Assembly: GCA_014727915.1 (NCBI GenBank)
Contig: WJMO01000006.1
Span: forward strand, 192,001 to 256,000
DNA: 64,000 bases
From: Candidatus Altiarchaeales archaeon
GTDB lineage: Archaea > Altiarchaeota > Altiarchaeia > IMC4 > SCGC-AAA252-I15
Direction: 5' to 3'
Under the pieces are notes generated by a model. The model worked only from the letters and a program-made list of their open reading frames with translations. It did not search any database and was not told the DNA's origin. The translations under genes and the position numbers were made by a program. Each line of letters starts with the position of its first letter. Position 1 is the first letter of the stretch. Below, piece by piece: positions 9,906 to 35,395 of the stretch.

Positions 9906-9979
9906 AGCCCCAGGAGGGATTTGAACCCTCGACATGCAGATTACAAGTCTGCCGCTCTACCAGTCTGAGCCACTGAGGC
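9906..9979 (-). tRNA. tRNA-Thr(TGT), no intron
   Basis: GCCTCAG/CTGGGGC acceptor, GCAGA-CTTGTAA-TCTGC anticodon arm, GGTTCAAATCC T arm. Confidence 0.97.
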
Positions 9980-10064
9980 GTGTGTTTTTTTATTGTTTTT
10001 CTCCTTAATGTGCGTGGCACCGTATGGTGGCACCCGCGGAGCGTGTGCACGGAGCTAGCCGTGT

Positions 10065-10093
10065 AGTCTGAGCCACTGAGGCGTGTGTTTTTT
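10065..10093 (-). repeat. 29-bp duplicate of the tRNA-Thr 5' end (nt 1-18 plus 11 upstream nt)
   Basis: agtctgagccactgaggcgtgtgtttttt is identical at 9962-9990 and 10065-10093. Confidence 0.95.
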
Positions 10094-10185
10094 GGATGTC
10101 TAATATTTAGGGTGATTTTGGAATATAAGTGCTATTTTGGTTTTTACGGTTTTTTGGTAGGGTTTTGGGTGTCCTTGCCCCAGTA

Positions 10186-11187
10186 TTATCGCTGGTGTAG
10201 CAGGTATTCCCGCAGGATTTGGTCGTGTGCGAATTTGGGCTTGAGCATGTGGTTCATCATTATGTTGGTTTCCAGGGGTATTGAGCTGTAGCAGGTTGAG
10301 CATTTGAAGTCGGGGATTGAGTGGAATGATTGGGCTCCGTTTTTACCTGCGTTGCAGTCCTCCCGTCCGGCACATGATGCTAGGGTGTCGCAGCAGGGTG
10401 CAACATGGCCGGAGGGGTCTATCGCGCAGGATATGCGGCCGGCCCAGCATTTCTCCGCTGGCATCTTGTCGGGCCAGCAGTCTCTCATATGCTCCAGGTA
10501 TTTAGTTGATGATGCGACCGGCCGTACCTGCTTCTTAGCGTTTATCAATTGGGTGGTTGCTTCCCTCATCTGATCTGGTGTTGGGAAGTACATCTTTGAT
10601 TTGCCTTCAGTATCTTCTTTTTGCACCCGTATTGGCTGGAAGAAGACGCGGGTGCCATATGCTTCGGCGAATCCTAGCACATCATCCAATACGTTGATGT
10701 TGTGTTTTCCTATCACAGTCATTATGTTGTTCTGTATGTTGTTTGAGTCTAAAGCGTCCATTCCTTCAATTATCTTGTCGAAGCTTCCGGGTCTTGATTC
10801 CTCCTGGATCTTTCTGGGTCCGTCCAGGCTTATGGTGACCATGTCAATGTCTCGTAGGTCGTTTATGCGTTCTGCCACGAGGGTGCCGTTGGTGGCCAGT
10901 GACGTGATGAACCCCAGTTTACGGCCGTATGTTATGAGTTCTCCTAGGTCGTCCCTCATGAGCGCTTCTCCGCCGTTGAAGCTCCAAAAACGAGTGCCAG
11001 CTTCTCGGAAGGACTTCATCAAATCCATGACATCCTGTGTGCCGAGTTCGTTTGTGTCATAGTGTCTTGAGCAGTAGCTGCAGTCGAGGTTGCAATTGTA
11101 GGTTATCATATGGGTCACGCGCAACGGTATCTTGGAACCTGCTTTTACTTTCAGGACAGAGGGTATCGAAAGTGCGGTTTTGATCAT
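10186..11187 (-). CDS. Radical SAM protein with a C-terminal SPASM/twitch-like Cys cluster
   Basis: CNLDCSYC, GGEAL, TNG, ISLDG, CWAG...IDPSGHVAPCC. Confidence 0.9.
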   Translation of the reverse strand: MIKTALSIPSVLKVKAGSKIPLRVTHMITYNCNLDCSYCSRHYDTNELGTQDVMDLMKSFREAGTRFWSFNGGEALMRDDLGELITYGRKLGFITSLATNGTLVAERINDLRDIDMVTISLDGPRKIQEESRPGSFDKIIEGMDALDSNNIQNNIMTVIGKHNINVLDDVLGFAEAYGTRVFFQPIRVQKEDTEGKSKMYFPTPDQMREATTQLINAKKQVRPVASSTKYLEHMRDCWPDKMPAEKCWAGRISCAIDPSGHVAPCCDTLASCAGREDCNAGKNGAQSFHSIPDFKCSTCYSSIPLETNIMMNHMLKPKFAHDQILREYLLHQR

Positions 11188-12629
11188 TCATATCCCCCGT
11201 CAGGGAGCTTCGACTTGACTTCGAGGAGGTCGGGGTCCTGGAGCCTGTCGTAGAGGATGCTGTGTTCCTGTCTGCCCTGGACTATCTCGGAGGCTTGGAA
11301 GCCCATGAGCATGGCGTCATCCATGAAGATGTAGTCGAAGAGGCCCTGGCGCCCGCATGATATGAGATTCCCGTACTTTTTGAGGTGTTCGAGGAGGCCG
11401 TCCCTGTTCTGCCGGTAGGTCATAGAGTAGACGGGGTAGGATTGGATGGCGTCTGTGGTGTAGTAGTCGACGACATTATCCTCCAGGTCCAAGCCCATGT
11501 CCTTCAAGTCCACCATGCAACGTTCGAACAGCTTCTTATCGTCCATGGTCCATGTTTCATCGCCGACCGTGCAGGGTATCTCCAGCATCACGGACGTCTT
11601 ACCCTCGGGAGCGCTGTATCTGCTTCGCCTCTTCGGCTCCTGCAACCGGGTGGCCGCGTAGCCGCCGTCCTGGAGGTACCACCAGGTGTTGTCGCTGATG
11701 TCTTCGATACCGTCCAATGGTATGTTCATGAACCTTAGGGAGCGCAGCTTCAGGTCGTCGGCCATGGCCAGCACCTCCGCTGCCGGCTTGGGATGCATCA
11801 TCTTCACAAGATCGGGTAGTAGCAGTGTTGATATCAGCTTCTCGCATTCTATTTTTTTCTTCACCCCGTCGAGTTCATACTCCACGGAGGTGACGGTGTC
11901 ACCTTCCAGGTTCACCGCCGTTACCCTGGCGTTGTAGACTATCATGCCCCCCAGACGTTCGACTTCGGCGGCGAGCACGCGGAACATCTGCCCTATTCCC
12001 TCACGGGGGTAGAAGTATTTGAGCGCGTAGGTGCGGGGCTTGGACTTCCGCAACCCCAACACCCGCAGTATGACGTCGGATAGGTTCAAGAGCGATATCC
12101 TCTGGGACGCCCACTCGCTGGATATCTCCCTTGGGCTGACACCCCAGAGCTTCGTGGAATATGGTTCGAAGAATATCTGGTAGAGCCTCCGCCCGTACCT
12201 GTTGACCAGCCACTCCTCGAAGTTATCGTCGGGTTGGGGGTTCAACCGGTTCAACAGCCGGGACTTCACATAGCTGAGGAAGCAGGCGGAAGACAGGAGG
12301 GGGTTCATGTTCACTAGGAGGTCGCGGGCGTTCAACGGGTACTTGTAGTTCTTGCCCTGGAAGCGGATAACGCTCTTCCGGGTTGAGACCAGCAATTCCG
12401 AGCCCATGAGCTTCTGCACGCGGTCGATGAGCCCCTGGTCCCTGCTTATGAAGCGGTGGCCGCCCAGGTCGAACCTGTAATCGCCACGCTCTGAAGTCCG
12501 GCACAAACCCCCGGGCTCGCCGAGCACCTCCAGCACGGTCACCTTGTAGCCCTTCTCCAGCAGGTCCCACGCAGCGGACAAACCGCAGGAACCAGCCCCT
12601 AAGACCAGCACATCCCCTCTACCGTTCAT
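11184..12629 (-). CDS. FAD-dependent oxidoreductase (protoporphyrinogen oxidase/UDP-galactopyranose mutase-like)
   Basis: GAGSCGLSAA dinucleotide-binding motif, GGLCRT, FDLGGHRF, GRQGLFDY-x-x-MD. Confidence 0.85.
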   Translation of the reverse strand: MNGRGDVLVLGAGSCGLSAAWDLLEKGYKVTVLEVLGEPGGLCRTSERGDYRFDLGGHRFISRDQGLIDRVQKLMGSELLVSTRKSVIRFQGKNYKYPLNARDLLVNMNPLLSSACFLSYVKSRLLNRLNPQPDDNFEEWLVNRYGRRLYQIFFEPYSTKLWGVSPREISSEWASQRISLLNLSDVILRVLGLRKSKPRTYALKYFYPREGIGQMFRVLAAEVERLGGMIVYNARVTAVNLEGDTVTSVEYELDGVKKKIECEKLISTLLLPDLVKMMHPKPAAEVLAMADDLKLRSLRFMNIPLDGIEDISDNTWWYLQDGGYAATRLQEPKRRSRYSAPEGKTSVMLEIPCTVGDETWTMDDKKLFERCMVDLKDMGLDLEDNVVDYYTTDAIQSYPVYSMTYRQNRDGLLEHLKKYGNLISCGRQGLFDYIFMDDAMLMGFQASEIVQGRQEHSILYDRLQDPDLLEVKSKLPDGGYE

Positions 12630-12657
12630 CTAAGGGATTAAGAAAACAGCATATAAA

Positions 12658-15624
12658 TTATACTACGACTTCTTTGGTTATCCAGACTCTTAGGCTGTTG
12701 CTGTCTATGTCTATGACGCCGAATTTGACCTCCCAGTATTCGGCGTTCTCCCAGAAGCTGACTTTGAACCTCTGGCTCTTGTCGTAGGGGTCCCATATGC
12801 GCACCCATGCGCCGTTGTAGCACTGGCGGTCCCAGACTATGCGGTCGAGTTTCAGCTTGAAAGACTGGTATTCTATTACATCCGTTGCGGTGAGGTTGAG
12901 TATGTCGTATTGTGGGGGCTTGGATGCGCAGGTCTTGCAGGGTCCGCCGCAGTCTATGCCGAGTTCTCCCTGGTTCTGGATGCAGTCGTAGCAGTTGCCC
13001 TGCCCTGGCAGGCCTCCCATGCAGTCGTCCTGTCCTTCGATGCACACCTCCCACTGGTCGCATACCTCGATAACCTCCACGGTATCCTTTACAGTGCAGT
13101 TGGCGGTGTACTCCCCCGGGTTCTCGCATATGTTCCGGGTGCAGTTCAGGGAGGGGTTGTTGGCGTGGTTGCAGTATGGTGCGCCGCACACGTCCACGCC
13201 GCAGTCCTCGTTCACCAGGCACATTGTGTCGTTTTCGTCGCATGGGGGGCAGGGTCCGCCGCAGTCCATCCACACCTCCCCCCTCTCATAGTCCCTAACG
13301 TCGTTTCGGCAGTGGTCTGGGTAGCATTCTCCAGCGTAGCAGTATTCGCTGTCCTCGCATGTTTTCACGAGGCGTGGGTTTACGGCCACTGACTTGCAGT
13401 ATGAGTCGGGAGTGCCGGGGTGTATGCAGGTGAACTTGACGTCTGGTGTTTTGACGAACCGGTCGTCGCAGAATGGCCGGTATGGTATGGGCTCCTCGCA
13501 CATGCTGGTGTTGTAGCATCTGACCTCCAATGTGGTGGTCGTGGTCGGGTTGGTGGGCAATGTCAGGGGCGGGAGGGTCGACTGGGTTGTCACTGTGGGT
13601 TTCAGCGTGGTTGTGGTCGGGCACATGCTCCTCTCCATGACCCATTTGCCGTCGTAGCACTGGTATAGGACTGCGGGCTTTGTGAATGACGCGAGTGCAG
13701 AGCTGACGTGGCCTTCCACGTAGGGGTACGCGAATAGTATGACCACCCCCCCGACCGCGATGAGTATGATGAAAACTACGCCTGCCATTACGAGCTTCAT
13801 AACAGGGGATTTTCCCCCGGGTTCTGTTTCTTCCGCAGGGGAGGGGAAGTCTTCCTTGTCTTTCTCGGTCTCCTCCAACGGTTCTAGGGTTGGCTTGGTT
13901 TTCTTCTTTTTCCCGAAGAACTGCTCCCTCAGGCCGCCCTCCTTCTTCGGTTTTGGCTGGGTGGGTGATTGCTCGCCCCCTGCAGGCGACCAGGTTATCT
14001 CCGATCCGCCAGCGGGTTCCCCCCCGGGAGGGCTTGTTCGGCCACCGGGCTTGGAGGGGGTTCCATCCGCTGTCCTGGGAGGGGATGGCTCTTCTTTGGA
14101 TGTTCCGGCATCAGCAGCATCCGACTCCCCTGTGGGGGGTGCCTTTGCCTGGGTGGTGGGAGCATGAGCTGGGGGGATGGGAGTCGGTGGAGTGGGAGGA
14201 ACTGCAGATTTTGCAGCCGGTGAAGGAGCCGGCGGTCTCTCCGGTGATTGGGCAACTGGGGGCTTACCAGCAGGCGAGGATTCAATAGGCTGCTTTTCAG
14301 GGGGGTATGGTGTGGCTGGCTTGAAGGTGGGGGGCTTTTGGATGTTGTCTGGCTTCACGCCTCGCATGTGAGGCGCTGTCATGTCTGTGGGGGAGGTTGA
14401 TGACGGGCCTGCAGTAGTAGGGGTGGATGGGGTTTTTGTGGGCGTTGTGGCGGGCCTTGGAGGTGTAGCAGGCTGCTGTTCCTGAACGGGTACAGGAGTC
14501 CTAGCGGCAGGCGAAGGCGGTGGTTGCCTTTCAGAGGAGGGAGGAGTAACCGGTTGGGGTGTTTTCTGAACCTGGGGTTGCGGTGGTGTAACAGGTTTTT
14601 GAGTTTGAGCCTGGGTTGATGGCGGCACATCGGTTTTTTGGAGTGTAGGCTGGGGACGAGCAGATTCAGAGGGCTTTTGAACTGGAGGAGTTGGAGGCCT
14701 GGCAGGAGGTGACTGTGGCTTTTCAGGGGTGGAATCCGAAGTTCCGGGGGTTTTAGGTGTTTGAGGGGGTGTACTTTCTGGTGTTCTGAATCCGGGGGGT
14801 TGATATGTTTCGGGAACGGGGTTGGGCTTTGTTTTTTCAGCTGTCCCTGCCGGAGGCTGGGCGGTAGTTGAGGGTTTATCAGGGGCTGCTGGCGCAGTCT
14901 GCTTAGCAGCCGGTGAAGTGGGTGCGGGCGGCTTCTGAGCCTCTGGCGTTTGAGTAGCAGGCTGCCTGGCCGGCGTCTGCGGTGCCTTGGCTGTTGTTTT
15001 AGGCTCTTCACGGCGGGGAAACCCCGGCCTTGAAGGCTTAGATAGGGGCGTCTCAGCTTGTTTCTGAACCGGGGAGACAGGTTCTAACCCGGCAGTCTTC
15101 TGAGCCGGCGAGGCTGGAGGCCTGGCAGGGGGCGTAGTAGACCTGGCAGATGTGGGTTGATCTGGCTCTTCTTGAGTAGACGAGGGCGGAACCGGCTTCT
15201 CAGGCACTGTAGGAGTCTGAGGCTTAGCGGCTGGTGAGGTAGTAGCTGTTACTGGAGGCTTCTGAGCCTGAGGTTGTGTGGGCGCTGCCGGTTTTTGAGT
15301 TTGAGTTCCGGGCGGGGTGGGAGTAGGTGGTTGGACCGGCTTCTGAGCTGGGGGAGTAGCAGGAGCCGAAGGCACAGTCGGCTTCTGAACTGGAGGAGCA
15401 GAGGGACTAGCGGGTGCAGAGGGCGAAGGTGGTTTCTGGGCTTGCGGAGCGGGGGTAGAGGGTGTTTTTTCCGGGGTTGTGGGTGTTGGGTGATCGGTCT
15501 TCTCCGCCTCGGCATCCTGTTGGATCTTATGGCGCTCCCGTTCTTTTCTCAGTTCCTCCTTAAGCTTGTCGAGTTCGGCCTGGTCTATGTCTTCAGAGCC
15601 ATCGTCATCGGGCATGGTAAACAA
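12658..15624 (-). CDS. Single-pass membrane protein with a ~600-aa Pro/Thr/Gln-rich N-terminus and a Cys-rich C-terminal domain
   Basis: 988 aa, TM LVMAGVVFIILIAVGGVVILFAY, two GE-x-x-x-DCGGPC motifs. Confidence 0.8.
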   Translation of the reverse strand: MFTMPDDDGSEDIDQAELDKLKEELRKERERHKIQQDAEAEKTDHPTPTTPEKTPSTPAPQAQKPPSPSAPASPSAPPVQKPTVPSAPATPPAQKPVQPPTPTPPGTQTQKPAAPTQPQAQKPPVTATTSPAAKPQTPTVPEKPVPPSSTQEEPDQPTSARSTTPPARPPASPAQKTAGLEPVSPVQKQAETPLSKPSRPGFPRREEPKTTAKAPQTPARQPATQTPEAQKPPAPTSPAAKQTAPAAPDKPSTTAQPPAGTAEKTKPNPVPETYQPPGFRTPESTPPQTPKTPGTSDSTPEKPQSPPARPPTPPVQKPSESARPQPTLQKTDVPPSTQAQTQKPVTPPQPQVQKTPQPVTPPSSERQPPPSPAARTPVPVQEQQPATPPRPATTPTKTPSTPTTAGPSSTSPTDMTAPHMRGVKPDNIQKPPTFKPATPYPPEKQPIESSPAGKPPVAQSPERPPAPSPAAKSAVPPTPPTPIPPAHAPTTQAKAPPTGESDAADAGTSKEEPSPPRTADGTPSKPGGRTSPPGGEPAGGSEITWSPAGGEQSPTQPKPKKEGGLREQFFGKKKKTKPTLEPLEETEKDKEDFPSPAEETEPGGKSPVMKLVMAGVVFIILIAVGGVVILFAYPYVEGHVSSALASFTKPAVLYQCYDGKWVMERSMCPTTTTLKPTVTTQSTLPPLTLPTNPTTTTTLEVRCYNTSMCEEPIPYRPFCDDRFVKTPDVKFTCIHPGTPDSYCKSVAVNPRLVKTCEDSEYCYAGECYPDHCRNDVRDYERGEVWMDCGGPCPPCDENDTMCLVNEDCGVDVCGAPYCNHANNPSLNCTRNICENPGEYTANCTVKDTVEVIEVCDQWEVCIEGQDDCMGGLPGQGNCYDCIQNQGELGIDCGGPCKTCASKPPQYDILNLTATDVIEYQSFKLKLDRIVWDRQCYNGAWVRIWDPYDKSQRFKVSFWENAEYWEVKFGVIDIDSNSLRVWITKEVVV

Positions 15625-15675
15625 TGAGAATAAAAACTAAAAAGCCGTTTTAACAGCATGGTTTGAATACATACC

Positions 15676-16113
15676 ATGGACGAGCACATGACCACGGCGT
15701 GGGAGGAGGCTAAGAGGGGTTTGGAAGAGGGCGGGATACCCATAGGGAGCGTTCTGGTAGTCGGCGGCCGGGTAGTCGGCAGAGGCCATAACAGGAGAGT
15801 CCAGGGGGATAGCAGCGTGCTGCACGCGGAGATGGACTGCCTCGAAAACGCCGGACGGCTAACATCCAAGGACTACGGCAGGTCAGTCCTCTACTCAACC
15901 CTAAGCCCGTGTGACATGTGCGCCGGCGCAGTCCTACTATACAAGATACCCAAAGTCGTGGTCGGCGAGAACGTGAACTTCAAAGGAGCCGAAGAACACA
16001 TGCGAAAACGAGGGGTTGAAGTCGAAGTGTTGAACCACCCGGCTATCATAGAATTCTTCAGGAACTGGGTAGATGAAAACCCGGAACTCTGGAACGAAGA
16101 CATCGGCGAATAA
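15676..16113 (+). CDS. Cytosine/nucleoside deaminase (zinc-dependent CDA fold)
   Basis: PIGSVL, HAE, LSPCDMC, terminal WNEDIGE as in yeast-type cytosine deaminases. Confidence 0.9.
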   Translation: MDEHMTTAWEEAKRGLEEGGIPIGSVLVVGGRVVGRGHNRRVQGDSSVLHAEMDCLENAGRLTSKDYGRSVLYSTLSPCDMCAGAVLLYKIPKVVVGENVNFKGAEEHMRKRGVEVEVLNHPAIIEFFRNWVDENPELWNEDIGE

Positions 16114-16115
16114 GG

Positions 16116-16343
16116 TTAGTAACGATTGGCTAGATATGTGTAGATTACTACGAGCAATATTGGTCCAGCAAGTGAGAATAGTCCATAGTGGACAATTGAT
16201 TCTAAGGGACAACTAGACTTGTCGGAAAGACTAGAACAGTAAACAATAAATCCTCCTGCGACACCACCTATTATTGCCAGATACCAAGCAACTAAGATAT
16301 GGAAAATATCTTTGGTAGATAATTTCTCTAATTTAAGGTCCAT
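16116..16343 (-). CDS. Small two-TM membrane protein
   Basis: AT-rich 75-aa ORF from ATG 16343 with two hydrophobic segments. Confidence 0.5.
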   Translation of the reverse strand: MDLKLEKLSTKDIFHILVAWYLAIIGGVAGGFIVYCSSLSDKSSCPLESIVHYGLFSLAGPILLVVIYTYLANRY

Positions 16344-16469
16344 TTTGTAGTGGACTCTGGGGGATTGTAAATCCCCCTTCCGCTTCGCGTGTGAACCCGA
16401 AGCAAGCAAAGCTTGCTAGGGTTGCTTGAACAGCATAACTGTTCATCGCAACGGAGCGAGCCGTTCGTT

Positions 16470-16592
16470 TGGGGCCGCCGAGATTCGAACTCAGGTCGCC
16501 AGCTCTCCGTTTCACAGCAGGGAAAATTAATGGGTTCCCCTTGCTTGACGAAGCCCCGAGCTGGAAGTATGGCCAAGCTAACCCACGGCCCC
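16470..16592 (-). tRNA. tRNA-Pro with a 49-nt anticodon-loop intron (about 16505-16553); anticodon GGG (CGG in an alternative register)
   Basis: GGGGCCG/CGGCCCC-A acceptor, CCAGC/GCTGG stem, GAGTTCGAATCTC T arm; the intron folds into a hairpin but the BHB is imperfect. Confidence 0.85.
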
Positions 16593-16645
16593 AAAATGGA
16601 CTGGATACTTTAGGATTTACTCGTTTATATAGGTTCTGGGTGGGT

Positions 16646-17206
16646 TCATGCGTCAAGTTCCTTTATCTGGTAGCATCTGCCCTCCGGTTCATACAGGCAG
16701 AGGTCGCTGTCCGCCGCGACCAACGCAGCAGCGGCTAGTTTCAGGTTCTTGGATATCAACGCGGTTATGAGGTTGTCGGGTATGGCCTGGGTCACCCAGG
16801 CGTATCCCCTGGCTTTTTCCCCAGCATCCCAGTATTCACGGTATCCGCTCAAAAGCTTAACATCCTCTGAAAGGACGTAGACTATCCCGTTATCGCTGAA
16901 GTTCCCCGCGTATTTGACCGCTGCGTTCTTGCGTGATAGGTTAGTGGACAGTGTCATGCTCGAGTCCCTGCAGCTGAGACCCATGCAGACCTGCCATTCA
17001 TTGTCTATCTCGTTGCCGTCAGCCTGATGCGGTGCCAGGCCATATTTCAATATGGCAACGTGGTCGCCTTCGCTCCCGTGCATTATCATACCCGGCCGGT
17101 CGATGTCGATTTCCGGGTCGTCAACGGATTCGATGGCATAGAGGGTCTTGGACAGGCCGAAACGTCCCCGGTATTCTGAAAGGTCGATGACGTCAATAGA
17201 CACCAT
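16646..17206 (-). CDS. Hypothetical protein with ADP-ribosyltransferase/Tpt1-like fold motifs
   Basis: Start moved to ATG 17206 because the track's start overlaps tRNA-Ala; MHGS...ILKYGL, LST, AVKYA, IVYVL, IP-x-x-LI. Confidence 0.55.
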   Translation of the reverse strand: MVSIDVIDLSEYRGRFGLSKTLYAIESVDDPEIDIDRPGMIMHGSEGDHVAILKYGLAPHQADGNEIDNEWQVCMGLSCRDSSMTLSTNLSRKNAAVKYAGNFSDNGIVYVLSEDVKLLSGYREYWDAGEKARGYAWVTQAIPDNLITALISKNLKLAAAALVAADSDLCLYEPEGRCYQIKELDA

Positions 17207-17247
17207 AGTGATAGTATTGGAGCAGAAGCAGAAATAAAAAAAAGATT

Positions 17248-17349
17248 TGGACTCGTCGGGATTTGAACCCGAGGCCTCCGCCACACTGGAAAACCCTGCT
17301 TTTTGGTTTTTTGCCAAGGCGACGATCTACCGGACTGATCTACGAGCCC
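17248..17349 (-). tRNA. tRNA-Ala(GGC) with a 28-nt intron at 37/38
   Basis: GGGCTCG/CGAGTCC-A acceptor with G3:U70; canonical BHB with TTGG/CCAG central helix, 3-nt bulges and AAAACC/GGTTTT intron helix. Confidence 0.95.
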
Positions 17350-17435
17350 ATGTCTGGAATATGTGATTATAAGTATATTATTTCTTTGGGGGGTGAGGCA
17401 CCTTTTCTTTCACCAAAAGAAGGGGGGGTCAAGGG

Positions 17436-17456
17436 CTGATCTACGAGCCCATGTCT
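17436..17456 (-). repeat. 21-bp duplicate of the tRNA-Ala 5' end (nt 1-15 plus 6 upstream nt)
   Basis: ctgatctacgagcccatgtct is identical at 17335-17355 and 17436-17456. Confidence 0.95.
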
Positions 17457-17555
17457 ACAAATTACTGCACCAACGGTTAAATAACAGCAAACACAAAATA
17501 TTTGGGTTATTTTACGTATAATTTAAAGATTTTTTTGTATTATTTAAAAAGTGGT

Positions 17556-17639
17556 CGCAGAGGTCGGGATTTGAACCCGAGCTCCCGAAGGAACAGGATT
17601 AGCAGTCCTGCGCGTTAAACCATGCTCCGCCACCTCTGC
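17556..17639 (-). tRNA. tRNA-Ser(GCT), no intron
   Basis: GCAGAGG/CCTCTGC-G acceptor, CAGGA-CTGCTAA-TCCTG anticodon arm, long variable arm. Confidence 0.97.
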
Positions 17640-17654
17640 AAGATGATAGTTTCC

Positions 17655-17831
17655 TTATTGTATCTGTTCTGCTTCGTCCACCAGCATTATCGGTATGTTG
17701 TCTTCTACCTTGTATTTGAGCTTGCATTTGTGGCATGTGAGGCTCTCCTCTTTCTCCGAGTCCTTGTATTCGAGGTCACCCTTGCATTTGGGGCATGCCA
17801 GGATGTCCAAAAGCTTCTTGTCGAGTGTCAT
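17655..17831 (-). CDS. Trm112 family methyltransferase activator (58 aa)
   Basis: Below the track's length cut-off; MTLDKKLLDILACPKCKGDL...LTCHKC...YKVEDNIPIMLVDEA. Confidence 0.9.
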   Translation of the reverse strand: MTLDKKLLDILACPKCKGDLEYKDSEKEESLTCHKCKLKYKVEDNIPIMLVDEAEQIQ

Positions 17832-17913
17832 ATTCAGCTATAAGAGAGGAAATATTTGAATAAAAATGGTTTTTAAGGTTTGTTCTGGTAATATGGTAGG
17901 TGTCATGTGAGGG

Positions 17914-19149: not shown

Positions 19150-19151
19150 GG

Positions 19152-20114: not shown

Positions 20115-20146
20115 GCAGAACCACCTCCCACAGCTTATTCGGAGGT

Positions 20147-20362
20147 TTAAGCCAGGCCAAGGCTTGAAAGCTCCTTAGCCGGGTCTTTGGCGTCCACAAC
20201 CCATGGTGTGGGCTCCAACTGGCTGCCTGAAACCTTCTTTTTCCGGGCTCTCGCTCCCTCTACCGTGAATTTCCCGTCTGTTTTTCCGGTGATCACGCAG
20301 AATTCGCCTGCATCGCGGCCTCGAGTCTTCTTGCACACCCTGCCAACATCCAATAATGCCAT
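20147..20362 (-). CDS. rpl14e: 50S ribosomal protein eL14
   Basis: VGRVCKKTRGRDAG-x-x-CVI...LEPT; conserved adjacency to cbf5. Confidence 0.9.
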   Translation of the reverse strand: MALLDVGRVCKKTRGRDAGEFCVITGKTDGKFTVEGARARKKKVSGSQLEPTPWVVDAKDPAKELSSLGLA

Positions 20363-23945: not shown

Positions 23946-23985
23946 GGTTTCACCTCCTTTACTTTGTTTAGATTAGAAATATGGC

Positions 23986-27057: not shown

Positions 27058-27085
27058 GCCGGCCGGGTTTGAAAGGGGGGTTAAA

Positions 27086-28291: not shown

Positions 28292-28370
28292 GGACAGGAC
28301 TGATGTATAAATGCTCCCAGCCAGGACACCATCAAAAGGCAAAAAGAATGCATTCCTGGGGATGATGGTT

Positions 28371-29930
28371 TTAATTCACGTAACCGAGTGACTTAAGCTG
28401 ATCTTTGACTGTTTCAGGGGTCTCGATAATATTTTCTTCCTGGAGGTCCTTGAAGGAGTAGTCCAATAGCATCTGCTGGAGATGGGCGGCGCAATTGTCG
28501 CATCCAAGTTGAAGGTTCCTCTGTTCGAACGGGTCGGATGAAAGGTTGTAAACTTCCATCCTGTAGGGTAGTTCGAGCACCTGTTCCTGCCTTACCATCA
28601 GGAATTCCTCGTTATACGAGTTGACCCTGGACCTGATGTACTTAATCTCCCCGTCTATGAGCATGTCCCGCCCATATCTGCCTCCAGCGTAGATGTAGGG
28701 TTTGTCATAGGATAGGTTGAAGAAGTTCATGCCCTTGAAGGTCGAAGGAGCCTCAACCCCCAATAGGTATAGTGTCGAGGGCGCAAGATCTATCATCTCG
28801 ACCGGCTTTTTTACGACTAGGCCTTTATCAAGGCCTGGCTTGTAGAAGAGGAGGGGGACCTTAAGCTGCTCATTGTATATCGTGTATACGTGGAATCTGC
28901 CTCCATGCTCGAAAAACTCCTCTCCGTGGTCGGCGGTAAAAATAAAGAGGGTGTTCTCATCGTATTCTGAGATCTTCCCCATGAGATTGGATATCATATA
29001 GTCTGTGTATGCGATTTCTTGGTCGTACTTGCATATCTGAAGTCGTTGGAACCGGCGCTTTGAAGGCAGCAAACCTCCCCCGGGATCGCAAAACATGCTA
29101 TCATAGGGTTTTGGAGCTATGAAGGGATAGTGTACGTCCATGTAATGGAGATATAGGAAAAACTTCTCTGGTCTTTCCTCTTTCAGCCATTTAAGTGCCT
29201 TTTCCTCTATCTTGGATGCTGTTTCGAACTTCTCAACCTCTTCATCGCCTATGAAACCCCGACTGTTGACATAGTATGTGTCAAATCCTTGACCAAGGTT
29301 TTTACGCTCGTGCATGAAGGGGTTCAGGACGAATGCTGCGGTCTTATAGCCTTCGAGGGAAAGCACCTCAGCGAGTGTGGTATGGTCGTCGCTTAAGCGG
29401 TTTTCAAAGGGCACTTCGATTATTCCGTGTGATTTGGGATATTCTGAGGTGAATATCGAGGCTACCGAGGGGGTTGTGTAGGCCTCCTGGCTGTATGCAT
29501 TGGCAAAGTTGACAGAGGCTAGTGCAATATTGTCCAGGTTGGGTGTGGTGTTCCGGGGATAACCGTTGAAGCCCATATGGTCAGAGCGCAGGGCGTCTAC
29601 GAGGAATATCACAACATTGCAGTCTTCACAGATTAAATCGCCTATCAGACCATCATAGGACAAGTTGCTCGAGTGATCAAATTCTCTCCTGGACAGAGGA
29701 TGTTCTACATTGTAGGATTGGAAGAAAGGTTGATAGTATTCGCCGGTTAGGACCATTTGAGTGCGTATGTCCAGGACCCTGTTGGCGGTGTCGCTCCTGA
29801 GGTGATCCGGGTTGAATAGTGGGTAAAACTCGAATCCGGTGGCAGCCTGATAGGATATGTAGGGGATAATGACGAGGAGTATGGGAATCAGATAGACTAG
29901 GATATACCTCCGAAAATCCCATTTTGACAT
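28371..29930 (-). CDS. Membrane-anchored sulfatase-like hydrolase/transferase
   Basis: DALRSDH, TTPSVASIFT, HYMDVH, ADHGEEF, C-terminal LKSLGY; start taken as ATG 29930. Confidence 0.88.
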   Translation of the reverse strand: MSKWDFRRYILVYLIPILLVIIPYISYQAATGFEFYPLFNPDHLRSDTANRVLDIRTQMVLTGEYYQPFFQSYNVEHPLSRREFDHSSNLSYDGLIGDLICEDCNVVIFLVDALRSDHMGFNGYPRNTTPNLDNIALASVNFANAYSQEAYTTPSVASIFTSEYPKSHGIIEVPFENRLSDDHTTLAEVLSLEGYKTAAFVLNPFMHERKNLGQGFDTYYVNSRGFIGDEEVEKFETASKIEEKALKWLKEERPEKFFLYLHYMDVHYPFIAPKPYDSMFCDPGGGLLPSKRRFQRLQICKYDQEIAYTDYMISNLMGKISEYDENTLFIFTADHGEEFFEHGGRFHVYTIYNEQLKVPLLFYKPGLDKGLVVKKPVEMIDLAPSTLYLLGVEAPSTFKGMNFFNLSYDKPYIYAGGRYGRDMLIDGEIKYIRSRVNSYNEEFLMVRQEQVLELPYRMEVYNLSSDPFEQRNLQLGCDNCAAHLQQMLLDYSFKDLQEENIIETPETVKDQLKSLGYVN

Positions 29931-30087
29931 GGATAAGGGATAAGAGTGAGTGTATAATAACTGAGTGATTATGGGGGCGGTTTCGACCGATATGATGTTT
30001 AGCTGGCCGGGCATAGCAGCCTGGAGGGGATGGAGCGACCGAAGAAGACAGGCATATTGGAGGACGGGAAGGGAAGCCCGGGAGGGG

Positions 30088-30381
30088 TCATACTTCCATG
30101 CAGTCGTGGTAGCTTTTGTCCCGGGTGTCGTATTTGCAGCATTCCCTGACTCCGACTTCAGCGGAGTTCACGTTGCAGTATGGCCTCCTAGCGGGACAGA
30201 CATACAAGACCTCCTTGGTGTCCCATTCGATTATCTTCTGGGGCCAGCTCCACTCGCAGTAGTATATCCGGTCGCCGGAGGTTTTCTCCTCCGACGGTGA
30301 TAGGGTGACTTCCACGTTGGTTCCCATGCACACGCACCCGGAAGCAAGCAGGACCAGGACAACCAGTATGAGAGAGCGCAT
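30088..30381 (-). CDS. Small Cys-containing lipoprotein
   Basis: Lipobox LASGC after a hydrophobic signal. Confidence 0.65.
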   Translation of the reverse strand: MRSLILVVLVLLASGCVCMGTNVEVTLSPSEEKTSGDRIYYCEWSWPQKIIEWDTKEVLYVCPARRPYCNVNSAEVGVRECCKYDTRDKSYHDCMEV

Positions 30382-30420
30382 GGTAACACATGAAATTACA
30401 CCAATATAAGGGAGCAAGTG

Positions 30421-31416
30421 TTATTTTCTCCTTTGGAGAACGTGGTATCTGCTTCCCGAGATGAGCATCACCGCGTTGTTGAATTTCTCCAGTTGCACGC
30501 CAGGCAGGTTGTTTTCCATCTTCATGTCGGATAGGGGTATGTTATGTATCTCAGGAGGCCGGGCTGGATTCACAGTCGAACCTATGCTCTCGTATCCTAT
30601 TTCATGGAGTGTTTTAAGGGTTGTCTCCTCGTGTTCGGCCACGACCGCAACGGCATCGGAGGCTAGGTGGTTATGGTCGAGTTTACTGACCCAACTGGTT
30701 ATCTCCTCCTGGCCAAGGTCCTCCCTGAGGAACCGGTGGTATTCCATCCCCTTGAATATCGCATAGTCGAATTTCCCGCCGCCCAATATGTTTGAAAGTA
30801 TGGTCTCGTCGCCCGACACCGAAGGTATGAAAGTAAAGTGCTCCCATGTGAGGTACCTGCCCATCTTACGCCAGTCTCTCTCGCCTATGCTATATCCTAT
30901 ACGTTCATGGGCGTATTTGATCCTCCGGATGCCCTCCCCGTGCTCGGATGTTATAGGATATTGGAGGGCTTCTTCTATGTCTCTGCGTATAGGCCCTGAC
31001 TTTATGAAGTTCCCGAAAACCATTGAGGGGTCTAATTTGAGCGCTTCCAACAGTCCGGCTCCTGCTATCATCTCCCCCTCGTGCATGCACATGCCCACGA
31101 GCCGGCCCTGGGTGCATGTGTTGACAAGCCAGAGGGTGTCGGCTCCCATCTCAGGGTAGAATCCCAAGCCCGTGAATATTGGCTTCCCGTCGGATCTGCG
31201 AATCCTAGAGAGTTCGCTCTGCTGTCTCAGCTGCTCGTGTAGGCATCCCAGGCCTGTCTTGCCCGTGTGTTTGGCAAGCCAGAAGACGGGATGTTCAAGT
31301 ATTTCAGTTTCGGGAGGTTCAGACAGGGGGATCGGCTCGCCGGCCAGGAACTGGAGGGGGTCAGGCACCATAGGGCCGGGGATAGATTTATTCGTCAACT
31401 GGCCTGGAACCACCAT
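30421..31416 (-). CDS. Hypothetical protein (orphan)
   Basis: 331-aa ORF filling the intergenic space; no recognised motif. Confidence 0.65.
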   Translation of the reverse strand: MVVPGQLTNKSIPGPMVPDPLQFLAGEPIPLSEPPETEILEHPVFWLAKHTGKTGLGCLHEQLRQQSELSRIRRSDGKPIFTGLGFYPEMGADTLWLVNTCTQGRLVGMCMHEGEMIAGAGLLEALKLDPSMVFGNFIKSGPIRRDIEEALQYPITSEHGEGIRRIKYAHERIGYSIGERDWRKMGRYLTWEHFTFIPSVSGDETILSNILGGGKFDYAIFKGMEYHRFLREDLGQEEITSWVSKLDHNHLASDAVAVVAEHEETTLKTLHEIGYESIGSTVNPARPPEIHNIPLSDMKMENNLPGVQLEKFNNAVMLISGSRYHVLQRRK

Positions 31417-31464
31417 CCTATTAGTAGAACAGGGAAATTATAGGTAATAAGTCTGTGGGTTTTT

Positions 31465-32487
31465 TTATGCTATTTTTTTGAGCCCATCCTCGATCAACTC
31501 CTGGAATTGGATGTAATCCTTGTCGCCTTCTAGGGGTTTTCCGTTTATGAAGAACTGGGGTGTGCCGCTTACTCCCACGTTTGAGCCGTCAGCGATGTCT
31601 GCCATCACTTCCTCAGTGTTTTCTCCGGAGTCGAGGCATTGGTTGAATTCTCCCATGTCCAATCCTATGTCGCGGGCGTATTTTCTCAGGGAGTTCACGC
31701 CGAGTTCCTGCTGGTTCTGGAAGAGGAGGTCGTGGTATTCCCAGAACATGCCCTGGTCGTCGGCGCACTCGGCAGCCTCCGCAGCCTTCATTGCGTGATC
31801 GTGTTTGCTCAGCGGGAAGTCGCGGAACACCAGCCTGGCTTTCCCGGTGTCAATGTATTCTTCCTTCAACTTCGAGAGGGTGTCCTGGGCGAATCTCCCG
31901 CAGAAGGGGCATTCGAACTCGGAGAATGCGATTATGGTGACGGGAGCGCCGGGGTCTCCGAGGACGGGGTCGTCGTCCTCGCCCGGCGGCTCTATGAACC
32001 TGCCCACCTTGGACGCGGAGGGGTTTATGACATACCTGCCGCCCACCTTAACCAGGAGGCTGCGGGCGTTGCTGAACTCCCCCGCACCTTCTACGCTGGC
32101 GTTGAAGATGTACGCGGGCAGGGTGTTGAGACCCAACTCTGACAGCAGCCGCTTACCCCTCTCGGATGAGATGTCAACCTCCTCGACTTCGACCGTGGGG
32201 AATATCTTGGTTTGGGTGGTCTGGACTATCTCCCTCGTATCGCACGCACTGCAGGTCCGGTCGTTCAACACGATCATGAGTATGGGCGGGTCACCCACTA
32301 CTGGAAGTGGAGGCTGTGTGGTGGTGGCCGCCCCAGCCAATGTGGTTGAGGTCACAAAATTGTTGGGGCTTTCACTGGTTTGAAGTAGCAGATAGAGGAC
32401 TATGAAGAACACCAGGACTCCGCCGAGCCACCGAAGCCTCCCAGGGTCAAAGGTGAACCTGACCTCAACATCTCTTTTAGAGGGCAT
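31465..32487 (-). CDS. DsbA-family thioredoxin-fold protein, membrane-anchored
   Basis: CSAC domain followed by FSEFECPFC, RDFPL, GVSGTP. Confidence 0.9.
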   Translation of the reverse strand: MPSKRDVEVRFTFDPGRLRWLGGVLVFFIVLYLLLQTSESPNNFVTSTTLAGAATTTQPPLPVVGDPPILMIVLNDRTCSACDTREIVQTTQTKIFPTVEVEEVDISSERGKRLLSELGLNTLPAYIFNASVEGAGEFSNARSLLVKVGGRYVINPSASKVGRFIEPPGEDDDPVLGDPGAPVTIIAFSEFECPFCGRFAQDTLSKLKEEYIDTGKARLVFRDFPLSKHDHAMKAAEAAECADDQGMFWEYHDLLFQNQQELGVNSLRKYARDIGLDMGEFNQCLDSGENTEEVMADIADGSNVGVSGTPQFFINGKPLEGDKDYIQFQELIEDGLKKIA

Positions 32488-32556
32488 TTTAACAGTCAGA
32501 AAACTGTTATGATTAGGAGGGTGAGGGTATATAATTGGGGGGCCGCAGTTATGACG

Positions 32557-33873
32557 CTAGCTGGCGTTTTCCTTTTTCATGAGTTTTTCCATTACGAGAC
32601 ATGCCGTCAGATCTCCCGTGACGTTCACGGACGTGCGGGCCATGTCCAGTATCCTGTCGACGCCGAGTATGAGGGCTACGCCGACCGCCGGTATGCCGAC
32701 AGACGTAAGCACGATGGAGAGTATGACTATGCCCATTCCAGGGGTGGCTGGCGAGCCTATCGAGGAGCCAACGACCGTCGCTATTATCAGGAGTATCTGG
32801 CTGATGCCGAGTTGGACGTCGAATACCTGCGCCAGGAACACTGCGGCGACGCCCTGGTATAATGCCGTCCCAGCCATGTTTACGGTCGCGCCCAGGGGTA
32901 TTATGAACTGGCTAAGTGATTTCCTGACTCCCAGTTTCTCCTCGGCAGTCTTGATTGACAGCGGCATCACAGCCGCTGAGCTTGAGGTGGAGAACGCTAG
33001 TAGGAGTAGCTCCCTGGTGCGGGTCAGGAACGTTAATGGCGATATACGTGCCGCGGCAAATGATATCAGCGTGTATGTTGTGAGTAGGAGGAGTAGGCCT
33101 GCGAGTACGGTGCCTACGTACACCGCCATGCCCAGGAGAGCGTCTAACCCGAGTTGGGTTGTTAGTTTCGCCATCAACCCGAACACCGCCACTGGCGCGA
33201 GCACCATAGCCCATTTCACTATCTGTATGCAAACCTGCTGTAGGGAGGCGATTAGTTCGAGTATGGGTTTGGCTTGTTCTACGGGGATGGATATCACCGC
33301 CAACCCTATGACCATGGCGAACAAAACGACCTGCAGCATCTCGGTTTCCACCATCGAGTTCAACGGGTTAGCAGGGACTAGGGAGCCTATGGCTTTAGGT
33401 AGGTTACCGAGGTCTAAGGCCTGTTGTGGGTTCTCCGAGGACTCCGGCTCTGACGCGGTTTCTGGGGCGGTGACGTATTCTCCGGGCTCCACGACGTATG
33501 CGAGCGCCACACCCACGGCTATCGCATAGGATGTGGTTACGACAACGAACACCAGCAGCATCAAACCGACTTTCCTCAGTTGCTCCAGGTTCTCGCTTGA
33601 CGCTATACCCCCTATGATGGAGGCGAAAACCAGGGGGACAACGATCATCTTAAGGAGTCCGAGGAACACCTGCCCGGGCACAGCCAGCCAGTCTCCCACT
33701 ATGGATGCTGTGGAAGGCTCGACTAACCCGGCGCTTGGGCCTAACACCAGCCCCGCCAAGAGGCCGGTCACCATGCCCAACAGTATCTTCAGCCATAGCC
33801 TACCCGCCACTAGATCCTGCAAATGGCTGTTGAGCCGCTTCAACGGCTTCGGATACAAAAGTTCAAGAGCCAC
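32557..33873 (-). CDS. Dicarboxylate/amino acid:cation symporter (GltP/DAACS family)
   Basis: FSTSSSAA, PLGATVNMAGT, DRILDMART-x-x-NV-x-GD; start GTG 33873 inferred. Confidence 0.92.
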   Translation of the reverse strand: MALELLYPKPLKRLNSHLQDLVAGRLWLKILLGMVTGLLAGLVLGPSAGLVEPSTASIVGDWLAVPGQVFLGLLKMIVVPLVFASIIGGIASSENLEQLRKVGLMLLVFVVVTTSYAIAVGVALAYVVEPGEYVTAPETASEPESSENPQQALDLGNLPKAIGSLVPANPLNSMVETEMLQVVLFAMVIGLAVISIPVEQAKPILELIASLQQVCIQIVKWAMVLAPVAVFGLMAKLTTQLGLDALLGMAVYVGTVLAGLLLLLTTYTLISFAAARISPLTFLTRTRELLLLAFSTSSSAAVMPLSIKTAEEKLGVRKSLSQFIIPLGATVNMAGTALYQGVAAVFLAQVFDVQLGISQILLIIATVVGSSIGSPATPGMGIVILSIVLTSVGIPAVGVALILGVDRILDMARTSVNVTGDLTACLVMEKLMKKENAS

Positions 33874-34128
33874 AGTAGGAGAAAAAAGAAGACAGACATA
33901 TAAATGCTGACTGTCACACAGTGAGAATGCGAAGGATCGGGGGGGAAGCTTTCGCCGCTGGCATGCGAGAACCTGGCGCTGACACAGGATAACAGAACTG
34001 GAAACCTCGGGGAGAATGGACCCGGCCCCATTTGCCAGACCGGGGAACATCAAGGAGACGAGAGGGGCTGAAGTGATGGGTTCCCAGGGTGTCTTGTTAT
34101 AAATTCACTCAGGATAATTGTTTTTTAC

Positions 34129-34581
34129 ATGGAGATTTTCAGGAGATTCCGGCTTTACGCCCGGGAGGAAGGCCTGCACCAGGTCGGCCTCTGCCCGGAC
34201 GCGGGCGAGTTCGCAGATAGGATCGCGTGCAGGTGGCATCGGGGGGAGCGCCCAAAGCTAGGCATGATTAACGTCGCATGCTTTGGGCTGTTTAAGCTGG
34301 AGAATGTGGACGTGCAGTTGCTAAAAGGGGGGAAAGCCGACGGTGAGAGGAAACCCGCTATACTTGCGCATGACCGGTCAAAGGGGAGGAAATTCCTGAT
34401 CATGAGGGAGGACGATGACGCCCCGAGATTCGGATTATATGCAAGGGAGAAGGATGAGAGGTTTGCTCCGGGCGAAAAGAGATATCCTATGGTACAGGTG
34501 GAAAAGGAGGGGGAGGTGATAGATTACCTTCCCAAATCAGGGGAGATCGTTCCCATCGCCGAGTTAAAAAAACTGAGATGA
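34129..34581 (+). CDS. Hypothetical protein
   Basis: 150-aa ORF after an AT-rich promoter-like stretch. Confidence 0.55.
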   Translation: MEIFRRFRLYAREEGLHQVGLCPDAGEFADRIACRWHRGERPKLGMINVACFGLFKLENVDVQLLKGGKADGERKPAILAHDRSKGRKFLIMREDDDAPRFGLYAREKDERFAPGEKRYPMVQVEKEGEVIDYLPKSGEIVPIAELKKLR

Positions 34582-34671
34582 GCAGGAGAACCCCGCAGAC
34601 TAACCAAGAAAAAAGCACCACACCAGAAGACCAGAGAAATCCTGCCACCATGATAGGAAAACGGAGGCACA

Positions 34672-34935
34672 ATGAGTGCAAAAGCTACAAAATACTACGT
34701 CTACCTCCTGGAATGCAGCGACGGCAGCTACTACTGCGGCCAAACCAACAACCTACAGAAGAGGCTACGACAGCACAACGAAGGGGAAGGCGGACGATAC
34801 ACGAGAACACGCACACCGGTCAGACTCGTATACACGGAACAGCACAAGACACGCAAGGAAGCCCTGAAGAGAGAGGCAAAGATAAAGAAGATGACAAGGG
34901 GGCAGAAAGAGGAATTAATAGGATGGGTGGTTTAG
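34672..34935 (+). CDS. Small GIY-YIG nuclease (UPF0213/YhbQ type)
   Basis: YYVYLLECSDGSYYCG-x-T-x-NL-x-KR-x-x-QHN-x-G-x-GGRYTR...ALKRE-x-x-IKK; upstream GGAGG. Confidence 0.92.
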   Translation: MSAKATKYYVYLLECSDGSYYCGQTNNLQKRLRQHNEGEGGRYTRTRTPVRLVYTEQHKTRKEALKREAKIKKMTRGQKEELIGWVV

Positions 34936-34983
34936 GCGGGCCTTATTTTAAGAAGGGCCACTTACTTTAGCATTTGTCCATTA

Positions 34984-35131
34984 GATACGAGTAAATCAGG
35001 CAGAAGTAAGGTGATTTTGAAGAGACTGGGGATGATGGGCCTGAGGAGACGAGTATCATGGAATGATACGAGTACATCAGGCAGAAGTTGGATGATGCTG
35101 GTATAGAATGTAGGTGATGGGCCTGAGGAGA
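34984..35131. repeat. Diverged tandem duplication (period 81-82 bp) that includes the tRNA-Ile2 3' end
   Basis: 24-mer at 34984-35007 and 35065-35088 (23/24 identical); tgatgggcctgaggaga identical at 35033-35049 and 35115-35131. Confidence 0.9.
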
Positions 35132-35278
35132 TTCGAACTCCCGACCACTCGATCTCCCAAACCCCTCCTCTTTCCATCCCTTTATTTTTCTTTTGGGGAT
35201 GAAACACCTTTTCTTTTTTTCTAAAAAGAAAAGGGGTTCTATGAGTCGAGCGCTCTAACCGGACTGAGCTACAGGCCC
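35118..35278 (-). tRNA. tRNA with CAT anticodon, most likely tRNA-Ile2, with an 86-nt intron (35154-35239)
   Basis: GGGCCTG/CAGGCCC-A acceptor typical of archaeal Ile tRNAs; BHB with CTCA/TGGG central helix and AACCCC/GGGGTT intron helix. Confidence 0.92.
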
Positions 35279-35381
35279 GTGTATGTGTGTTTTTTTCCTA
35301 GCCTTTGGGCTAGTGCATTTTTTGTTCGGGGGGGGCCTTAGCGGAGCGGAGGTCGCACATTTGTCGTCGGCAAACTCCGAC

Positions 35382-35395
35382 AGCTACAGGCCCGT
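35382..35395 (-). repeat. 14-bp duplicate of the tRNA-Ile2 5' end (nt 1-12 plus 2 upstream nt)
   Basis: agctacaggcccgt is identical at 35267-35280 and 35382-35395. Confidence 0.88.

Follow-up and report, generated by a model that had tools for sequence, protein, structure and literature searches.

Three tRNA genes in a 64,000-nucleotide (nt) stretch of the genome of a Candidatus Altiarchaeales archaeon (assembly GCA_014727915.1, contig WJMO01000006.1, positions 192,001 to 256,000; here termed the window) are each preceded by an exact copy of their own 5' end, from which they are separated by a short, hairpin-rich insert. On balance, we favor the view that these three loci, which code for tRNA-Thr(TGT), tRNA-Ala(GGC), and tRNA(CAT), are insertions of lineage-restricted mini-elements with long and variable target duplications, in which the upstream copy is a dead stub keeping the native promoter. 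The original prediction, made from the letters of the window alone, had placed such copies upstream of all three genes, and they are all present on the minus strand, with inserts of 74, 80, and 101 nt. It had interpreted them as the product of an undescribed tRNA-targeted mini-element or insertion/repair process. The mini-element interpretation is partly right, the element being neither tRNA specific nor unrelated to known sequence but a member of intron-related module families. The study genome (G000, in which the window is G000:C3:192001-256000) is a 1.81-Mb assembly of 13 contigs that is 90.6% complete. The features of the three loci are as follows.

9906..9979, minus strand: tRNA-Thr(TGT), intact gene (ARAGORN; Rfam tRNA, 69 bits)
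9962..9990, minus strand: proximal copy of the 29-nt Thr repeat, covering -11 to +18 (C3:201962; period, 103 nt)
9991..10064, minus strand: Thr insert of 74 nt, with an X-family core at 10004-10063
10065..10093, minus strand: distal copy of the Thr repeat, i.e., the 5' stub, with TATA-like boxes upstream (repeat and box inspection)
17248..17349, minus strand: tRNA-Ala(GGC), intact gene with a short intron (Rfam; ARAGORN with introns)
17335..17355, minus strand: proximal copy of the 21-nt Ala direct repeat, covering -6 to +15 (period, 101 nt)
17356..17435, minus strand: Ala insert of 80 nt, W related (BLAST, 85.7% identity over 35 nt to the tRNA(CAT) intron, E 6e-5)
17436..17456, minus strand: distal copy of the 21-nt Ala direct repeat, the 5' stub
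35033..35131, minus strand: 3'-end duplication of tRNA(CAT), with a 17-nt copy at 35033-35049, 82 nt downstream of the original at 35115-35131
35118..35278, minus strand: tRNA(CAT), intact gene; its W-family intron of 86 nt occupies roughly 35157-35242 (Rfam; ARAGORN; W motif)
35267..35280, minus strand: proximal copy of the 14-nt tRNA(CAT) direct repeat, covering -2 to +12 (period, 115 nt)
35281..35381, minus strand: tRNA(CAT) insert of 101 nt, whose Z core at 35330-35381 directly abuts the stub (covariance model R1, 41.5 bits, E 2e-9)
35382..35395, minus strand: distal copy of the 14-nt tRNA(CAT) direct repeat, the 5' stub

The core of the Thr insert, recovered by nhmmer at C3:202004-202063 (E 7e-13), consists in order of hairpin 1 (ACGGCTAGCTCCGT), a linker, hairpin 2, and a terminal GCACA. 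The tRNA(CAT) insert has a fold z-score of -3.7, and the 3' part of the Ala insert carries a TATA-like box about 20 to 27 nt ahead of the intact gene. The duplication at the 3' end of tRNA(CAT) also repeats part of the trailer. A search of the whole window against Rfam 15 at the gathering score returned tRNA matches only and no other curated family, and a search of the Thr and tRNA(CAT) leaders at E values up to 10 returned nothing credible. The proposal that the copies start at an A is true of the three repeats in the window but fails at three of five others, namely, those of tRNA-Arg(TCT) and tRNA-Gly(TCC), which start at G+1, and that of a tRNA-Ser(TGA)-like gene, which starts at a T. The further proposal that the start of the repeat marks the start of transcription is not supported, as the spacing to the TATA box is not tight, with offsets, judged by eye, from about -8 to +9 nt.

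The inserts fall into a few families of structured modules of roughly 55 to 60 nt, which we call X, Z, and W. Besides 5' leaders, these modules are found as tRNA introns at position 37/38, directly after tRNA 3' ends, beside copies of 3' ends, and at the ends of protein genes. Far from being unknown sequence, the modules are homologous to canonical tRNA introns of G000 and its relatives. The X module of the Thr insert is 89% identical over 55 nt to the leader of tRNA-Glu (BLAST) and has homologues in the Thr leaders of two relatives (G008 and G005). X also abuts the 3' ends of three genes, those of tRNA-His and tRNA-Phe and a tRNA-Pro(GGG)-like one, in each case immediately preceding the start codon of a small membrane open reading frame (ORF), as well as after the 3'-end copies of tRNA-Val and tRNA-Ser(GGA) and at the trpE/trpG junction. 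Z occupies the leaders of tRNA(CAT), tRNA-Gly(GCC), and tRNA-Arg(CCT). In G005, G008, G015, and G031, it forms the canonical intron of tRNA-Thr at position 37/38, and in G002 it lies inside the intron of tRNA-Leu. The W motif occurs six times in G000, five times as a tRNA intron, including that of tRNA(CAT), and once upstream of tRNA-Gly(TCC); three of the five tRNAs have W introns that are 96 to 98% identical over about 50 nt. Both W and Z furnish similar sequences as introns in different tRNA genes, as do the mobile tRNA-intron families of Thermoproteales. A further family, V, is found in a gatE-like gene. Modules are present in both orientations relative to the host gene, and there are nested insertions inside both Z and X modules, as in one example from the window:

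16343..16466, minus strand: X module directly 3' of the tRNA-Pro(GGG)-like gene (16469-16593), split by a nested insertion

The small membrane-like ORFs that follow this X module and that of tRNA-His (C3:346999-347066) are homologous to each other and start ~10 nt past X; the copy following tRNA-His has an early stop.

Analysis of conservation across Z modules indicates that their core is structured, in that hairpin 1, a pairing of its loop with the linker downstream, and hairpin 2 are all backed by compensatory changes. In a set of 10 sequences, 79% of the cells are paired, versus 39 to 46% with the partners slid. Among 64 distinct sequences, 35 have GC, 25 have CG, and 2 have UA at pair 11:19 of the core (alignment columns 11:68), with no mismatches; at pair 10:20 (columns 10:69), 42 have UA and 19 have AU; and at pair 1:16 (columns 1:65), 39 have GC, 14 have CG, and 2 have AU. 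Covariation scored 0.306, versus at most 0.045 for slid partners, and none of 500 shuffles came up to this value; the loop-linker helix had been left out of the model used for sequence alignment. Because the two helices overlap, the core is either a compact pseudoknot or a two-state switch.

The upstream copies are far more frequent at tRNA genes than elsewhere in the genome. Exact self-matches of at least 12 nt located 40 to 250 nt upstream were found at 8 of 31 tRNA genes of G000, versus 165 of 20,000 random genomic positions; with a minimum of 14 nt, the counts are 7 of 31 and 70 of 20,000. The architecture is therefore present at other tRNAs and is more frequent there than at random positions. 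Further instances are a 16-nt upstream copy with one mismatch at tRNA-Glu and a 45-nt upstream copy at tRNA-Arg(CCT). The architecture also recurs in relatives: of 20 tRNA genes in the sister genome G001, 6 are preceded by a copy starting from tRNA nt 1 that lies 95 to 150 nt upstream, a score equaled by only 2 of 380 cross-tRNA controls, and G008 and G005, members of other genera, share the Thr architecture with a homologous insert. An unbiased list of direct repeats in the genome (at least 12 nt exact, 40 to 200 nt apart) comprises 226 entries, 16 of which touch tRNA genes, and 6 of these 16 are duplicated tRNA 3' ends. The duplication is not limited to 5' ends, as had been supposed: six tRNA genes, including tRNA(CAT) of the window, have 14- to 19-nt copies of their 3' ends 75 to 86 nt downstream, and these copies finish at the discriminator base or within 3 nt of it. 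Overall, inserts measure 34 to 117 nt and repeats 12 to 73 nt; at sites with Z, X, W, or V modules, the inserts measure 56 to 117 nt and the period is about 100 to 131 nt. About a third of the tRNA genes found in this group have such inserts or dead stubs. An elaborate arrangement precedes tRNA-Ser(GGA) (G000:C12:332051-332290), where two full tandem units of 77 nt, each a 12-nt stub plus a 65-nt insert, lie upstream of the gene; the insert holds the complement of the stub, and each unit can be folded into a long acceptor-like hairpin.

Comparison of orthologous loci yielded the empty alleles that the original prediction had proposed to look for. At the trpE/trpG junction, G009 and G004 have no insert, whereas G000, G001, and G002 have X plus a repeat. 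Similarly, tRNA-His has no leader insert in G000, whereas in G001 a stub (nt 1 to 21, with two mismatches) is followed by X and then by the intact gene. The native sequence upstream of the G000 gene aligns with the region ahead of the G001 stub (59 of 85 positions identical, score 25) and not with that ahead of the intact gene (score -13), which indicates that the stub is the old gene start with its promoter. The existence of such empty sites argues that the filled loci are insertions rather than an ancestral structure. Some stubs have begun to decay: the upstream Thr copy has A6 where the gene has G6 in G008 and C8 where the gene has T8 in G005. As to whether the variable 3' filler of the inserts is a decayed portion of the duplication, the sequences upstream of the two repeat copies share 4 to 10 of 20 positions, which is near chance except perhaps at tRNA-Arg(CCT) and tRNA-Gly(TCC).

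The process is also not aimed specifically at tRNA genes, in contrast to what had been proposed, as the same modules are found at protein-gene ends, with a long direct repeat on either side:

hisF-like gene: Z after the first 38 nt; repeat of 31 nt exact, or 38 nt with one mismatch
C3:440887: Z; repeat of 27 nt
C3:498759: Z within the 3' end of an ORF; repeat of 73 nt
trpE/trpG junction: X; repeat of 48 nt
gatE-like gene: V; repeat of 49 nt
G000:C11:6503-6700, 3' end of the splicing endonuclease (EndA) gene: Z variant; repeat of 71 nt

In the two cleanest of these cases, the insert is the 56- to 58-nt core alone. The repeats start at the ATG or within 1 nt of it at hisF, at C3:440887, and in an array of another genome (G019:C98); that of the gatE-like gene begins near the ATG, and its second copy has a small deletion just past the ATG. 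Such starts can also reflect faster decay of the unconstrained flank. The EndA ORF, the only such gene in G000, has been shortened by a few codons through its Z-variant duplication, and sequence similar to this site is found next to Z in G018 and G032.

The genome collection holds 61 species genomes of the phylum, 49 of them in the order of the study organism and 12 in two other families. At E values of up to 1e-4, the Z covariance model matches 26 of the 61 genomes, all of them among the 49 of the one order, and none of the 12 genomes of the other two families. The number of copies per genome ranges from 0 to 31 at E values of up to 0.01, and copies are often in tandem with periods of about 100 to 130 nt. 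One array in G019 has the order repeat-Za-repeat-Zb-repeat, in which two Z subtypes share the same 48-nt repeat, and in G036, V and Z modules alternate and many copies lie at contig ends. Two arrays, namely, a duplication of the Thr 5' half (L014, G021:C2) and one at hisF (L140, G025:C133), are partly masked by N, so that the number of units is unreadable there.

Taken as proposed originally, the loci are products of one recurrent insertion-type process that involves small noncoding hairpin-rich modules without inverted ends, not kilobase-sized integrase elements. None of 12 inserts beat shuffles in a comparison of terminal inverted repeats, the fraction of shuffles reaching the observed score being 0.27 to 1.0. 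In the scenario that we propose, a structured module would have inserted into the first 12 to 18 nt of a tRNA gene and duplicated the target, of which 14 to 29 nt are still exact. The downstream copy would have become part of the working gene, and the upstream copy would be the original start. Transcription from the native promoter is predicted to pass through the stub and the module, which would form a chimeric RNA, into the tRNA, yielding a precursor whose long leader could be cut off by RNase P at +1. At the Ala locus, the working tRNA may instead be made from the TATA-like box carried by the insert, and at the Thr locus, endonuclease splicing after nt 14 is a possible second route. Of the relevant processing enzymes, G000 has a single EndA gene and an RNase P RNA with a score of 80.5 bits, slightly below the curated 84. 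The two copies might afterwards be kept alike, and the arrays built, through gene conversion or unequal crossing-over.

Several observations weigh against this scenario. No mobilizing enzyme was found: the RVT_1, Y1_Tnp (PF01797), TnpB zinc ribbon (PF07282), Cas1 (PF01867), and DDE_Tnp_1 (PF01609) domains are absent from the 90.6%-complete G000, other transposase families not having been searched, and the only two tyrosine integrases of this genome adjoin tRNA-Glu and tRNA-Asp, with none at the three loci. Only 6 of the order's 49 genomes have a reverse transcriptase, whose presence does not follow the Z copy number; none was found in five of the six genomes richest in Z (G036, G031, G015, G038, and G008) or in G000, which also carries many Z copies, whereas G019, the Z-richest genome, has three. 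The RNA-templated step that had been suggested hence finds no support in gene content. Between the copies within G000, only the module core is conserved, each locus having its own hairpin 2 and 3' tail, so that there is no sign of recent bursts there. The copies that serve as introns have no flanking repeats. Further, the hisF arrangement is common to G000, G001, and G025, but the two repeat copies of any one genome match each other fully or almost fully and differ between genomes, which, across families, calls for gene conversion, array turnover, or selection and makes a function of the leader possible. At tRNA(CAT) and tRNA-Gly(GCC), G000 and G001 share the same breakpoints and part of the module body but have different module heads, Z in one and X in the other, which is not what a simple one-off insertion predicts. 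Finally, the second copy of the trpE end in G001 has drifted at many synonymous-looking positions while encoding the same peptide start. This relic (G001:C7, L145) has an in-frame ATG start and the same first 13 residues as the real C terminus despite many changed codons, and its final stop codon overlaps the start of trpG; these features point to a translated mini-ORF retained for coupling. The conservation of the core alone and the hisF, tRNA(CAT)/Gly(GCC), and trpE observations keep a functional interpretation of the leaders alive.

Under that interpretation, which we regard as unlikely, the modules are functional RNA parts, such as binding, processing, or regulatory signals, maintained by selection, with the duplication of gene ends as a by-product or even a part of the function. 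The strong covariation of both overlapping Z helices is as expected of such parts, as are the retention of the architecture across genera or families at the Thr leader, hisF, and trpE/trpG, the synonymous differences that leave the peptide start of the second G001 trpE end unchanged, and the position of X right before the start codons of the small membrane ORFs downstream of tRNA-His, tRNA-Pro, and tRNA-Phe. However, the empty orthologous sites work without a module, the stubs decay, and the modules are found in both orientations relative to the host gene. Moreover, the nested insertions, arrays, and copies at contig ends resemble selfish repeats, and no Rfam family is matched.

A second alternative holds that the duplications are attachment (att) repeats left by viruses or plasmids with tyrosine integrases whose interior has since been deleted. 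Such integrases do duplicate tRNA ends, and a tRNA-Thr 5' fragment of Caldiarchaeum was so explained (PMC3293823). The two integrases of G000 next to tRNA-Glu and tRNA-Asp and an AT-rich island on the 3' side of tRNA-Thr also fit this explanation. Nevertheless, we find it quite improbable, as the inserts are only 34 to 117 nt long with a narrow period of about 100 to 131 nt at module sites, the same core recurs at many unrelated targets, including four protein genes, the repeats range in length between 12 and 73 nt, the cores share homology with introns, and there is no integrase beside the three loci.

Still less credible, indeed very improbable, is the explanation that the upstream copy is the real first exon and that the intervening DNA is a D-arm intron cut by the splicing endonuclease at a bulge-helix-bulge motif. 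It draws on the Thr locus, where the two repeat copies can pair with each other and a cut after nt 14 in both gives the full motif, its four of four central pairs lying between an outer helix of 5 bp and an inner one of 3 bp, and the same pairs are seen by eye in the G008 sequence. As a general explanation, we reject it: flanking helices around the central helix are present at only one of eight loci. To join stub and gene body, such a splice requires a 4-mer that is self-complementary. In the scan for this motif, the Ala, tRNA(CAT), Arg(CCT), Arg(TCT), and Gly(TCC) loci have at most a central 4-mer with helices of 0 to 2 bp, and tRNA-Ser(GGA) and the Ser(TGA)-like gene do not have even the central 4-mer. 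Further, the Thr motif follows from a chance inverted repeat within the tRNA (nt 4 to 8 with nt 16 to 20), and splicing would damage the tRNA in relatives, setting A6 against C67 in G008 and, in G005, exchanging the conserved U8 for C8. Excision of the insert with one repeat copy would restore the tRNA by construction, yet the downstream gene is already complete. Lastly, although the genome is a metagenome-assembled one in 13 contigs, an assembly artefact can practically be dismissed, because the same architecture is found at the same tRNA and other orthologous loci in separately assembled genomes of different genera, and the repeats are 100 nt apart with unique sequence between them.

Having set these alternatives against the insertion of mini-elements, we considered a more specific and rather doubtful version of the latter, in which X, Z, W, V, and Y constitute a new mobile class of ~55-nt pseudoknotted RNA-like modules. 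Their primary home would be the tRNA intron; they would have no transposase of their own and might be moved by host tRNA cutting and joining enzymes together with a DNA-level step, landing at transcript ends with 45- to 75-nt target duplications and becoming introns where the flanks fold into a splice motif. The main hint in favor of this proposal is that the 5' edges of the modules coincide with RNA processing sites: Z begins at the 5' splice site, and X begins right after the tRNA discriminator base.

Some other features of the window and the genome deserve mention. The AT-rich island on the 3' side of tRNA-Thr occupies positions 1 to 9900 of the window (C3:188727-201916), with a GC fraction of 0.31 to 0.48, versus ~0.55 elsewhere, and contains an ORF for a TraG/HerA-like P-loop ATPase (8154-9935, minus strand). 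The last 11 nt of tRNA-Thr and 166 nt of its flank are repeated at C3:188727-188894 with 85% identity, and ~100 nt of this recurring flank resembles the DNA beside the integrases at tRNA-Glu and tRNA-Asp. The island looks like an ordinary integrated element. The closest relatives of the Cbf5 protein, at 62 to 75% identity, come from metagenome-assembled genomes labeled Candidatus Altiarchaeota. The tRNA genes of G000 have long introns, and gene tallies differ between programs. In the window, Rfam detects five and default ARAGORN two; in the whole genome, Rfam detects 27, and ARAGORN with introns detects 35 candidates, at least 4 of which are doubtful:

C3:304297: Pro, with a 565-nt "intron"
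C3:495631: His(atg)
C7:42115: Ala
C3:208469: Ser(gga)

These tallies leave about a dozen expected tRNAs unaccounted for, some of which may have noncanonical introns.

Several known classes of mobile DNA bear a partial resemblance to the modules. MITEs (miniature inverted-repeat transposable elements) are small noncoding insertions, and IS1634 of Mycoplasma has long direct repeats of variable length; the modules are like these in being small noncoding inserts with long, variable repeats but differ in having no inverted ends (0 of 12) and no DDE_Tnp_1 transposase. An origin as MITEs was rejected on the grounds that there are no inverted ends, that no partner transposase was found among PF01609, PF01797, and PF07282, and that the repeats, at 12 to 73 nt, are not of a short fixed length. 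Short and long interspersed nuclear elements (SINEs and LINEs) insert by target-primed reverse transcription, and Ty3 and TRE elements are aimed at tRNA genes. The modules share with them one precise and one variable end, variable target duplications, and a bias to highly transcribed small-RNA genes. Unlike SINEs and LINEs, they have a prokaryotic host, no A-tail, and no reverse transcriptase in most of the genomes that carry them, and a SINE or other retroposon without long terminal repeats was rejected given the absence of RVT_1 from G000 and of any visible A-tail. Integration of the casposon or CRISPR type was rejected as Cas1 (PF01867) is absent from G000 and the length of the repeat varies, and an integrative element of the SSV/pNOB8 type was rejected as the integrases are not at the three loci, the inserts are 74 to 101 nt long, and the same cores occur at protein genes.

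Closer precedents come from archaeal tRNA biology. In Thermoproteales, families of similar short introns are shared among tRNA genes that are evolutionarily distinct, and these introns are considered mobile (Fujishima et al. 2010, as described in PMC10714607). The modules are like these transposing introns in that sequence families are shared as introns between different tRNA genes; they differ in also occupying leaders, trailers, and protein-gene ends outside splice motifs, with target repeats of 12 to 73 nt, and in having a covarying pseudoknot-like core and a host from a different phylum (records labeled Altiarchaeota). In Caldiarchaeum subterraneum, a tRNA-Thr 5' fragment (nt 1 to 27) with its native upstream region lies as a direct repeat 1.8 kb upstream of the complete gene, an arrangement explained by an integrase and linked by the authors to intron gain (Sugahara et al. 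2012, PMC3293823). The presence of a 5' fragment with the native upstream region ahead of a complete gene is common to both cases, but the Caldiarchaeum insert is 1,868 bp long, codes for a putative recombinase, and is found at one locus, whereas the inserts described here are 56 to 117 nt long, noncoding, and associated with about a third of the tRNA genes. The att duplications of archaeal integrative elements, typified by SSV1 with its 44-bp repeat in tRNA-Arg (PMC3293823), are similar in that they copy the end of a tRNA and leave a reconstituted gene; SSV1-type elements, though, are kilobase-sized and have an integrase and one fixed target each, and none of these features is seen here. In the library that we searched for literature on archaeal tRNA introns, neither inserts of 100 nt accompanied by duplicated tRNA ends nor such modules at protein genes have been described.

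These observations bear on how archaeal tRNA introns spread. A 2026 preprint on the tRNA introns of Asgard archaea treats, in its abstract, the route of intron arrival as still open. In the lineage studied here, the same families are observed in two states, one being the spliceable intron and the other the plain insertion accompanied by a target duplication, and empty sites are available for comparison. Modules with two such states may help to show how archaeal tRNA introns move, and their arrival at new positions becomes testable. Dead 5' and 3' stubs and long structured leaders can also mislead gene finders and analyses of tRNA fragments and split tRNAs. If the modules do form a mobile class of the kind tentatively outlined above, it would offer a concrete path by which tRNA introns arrive in archaea.

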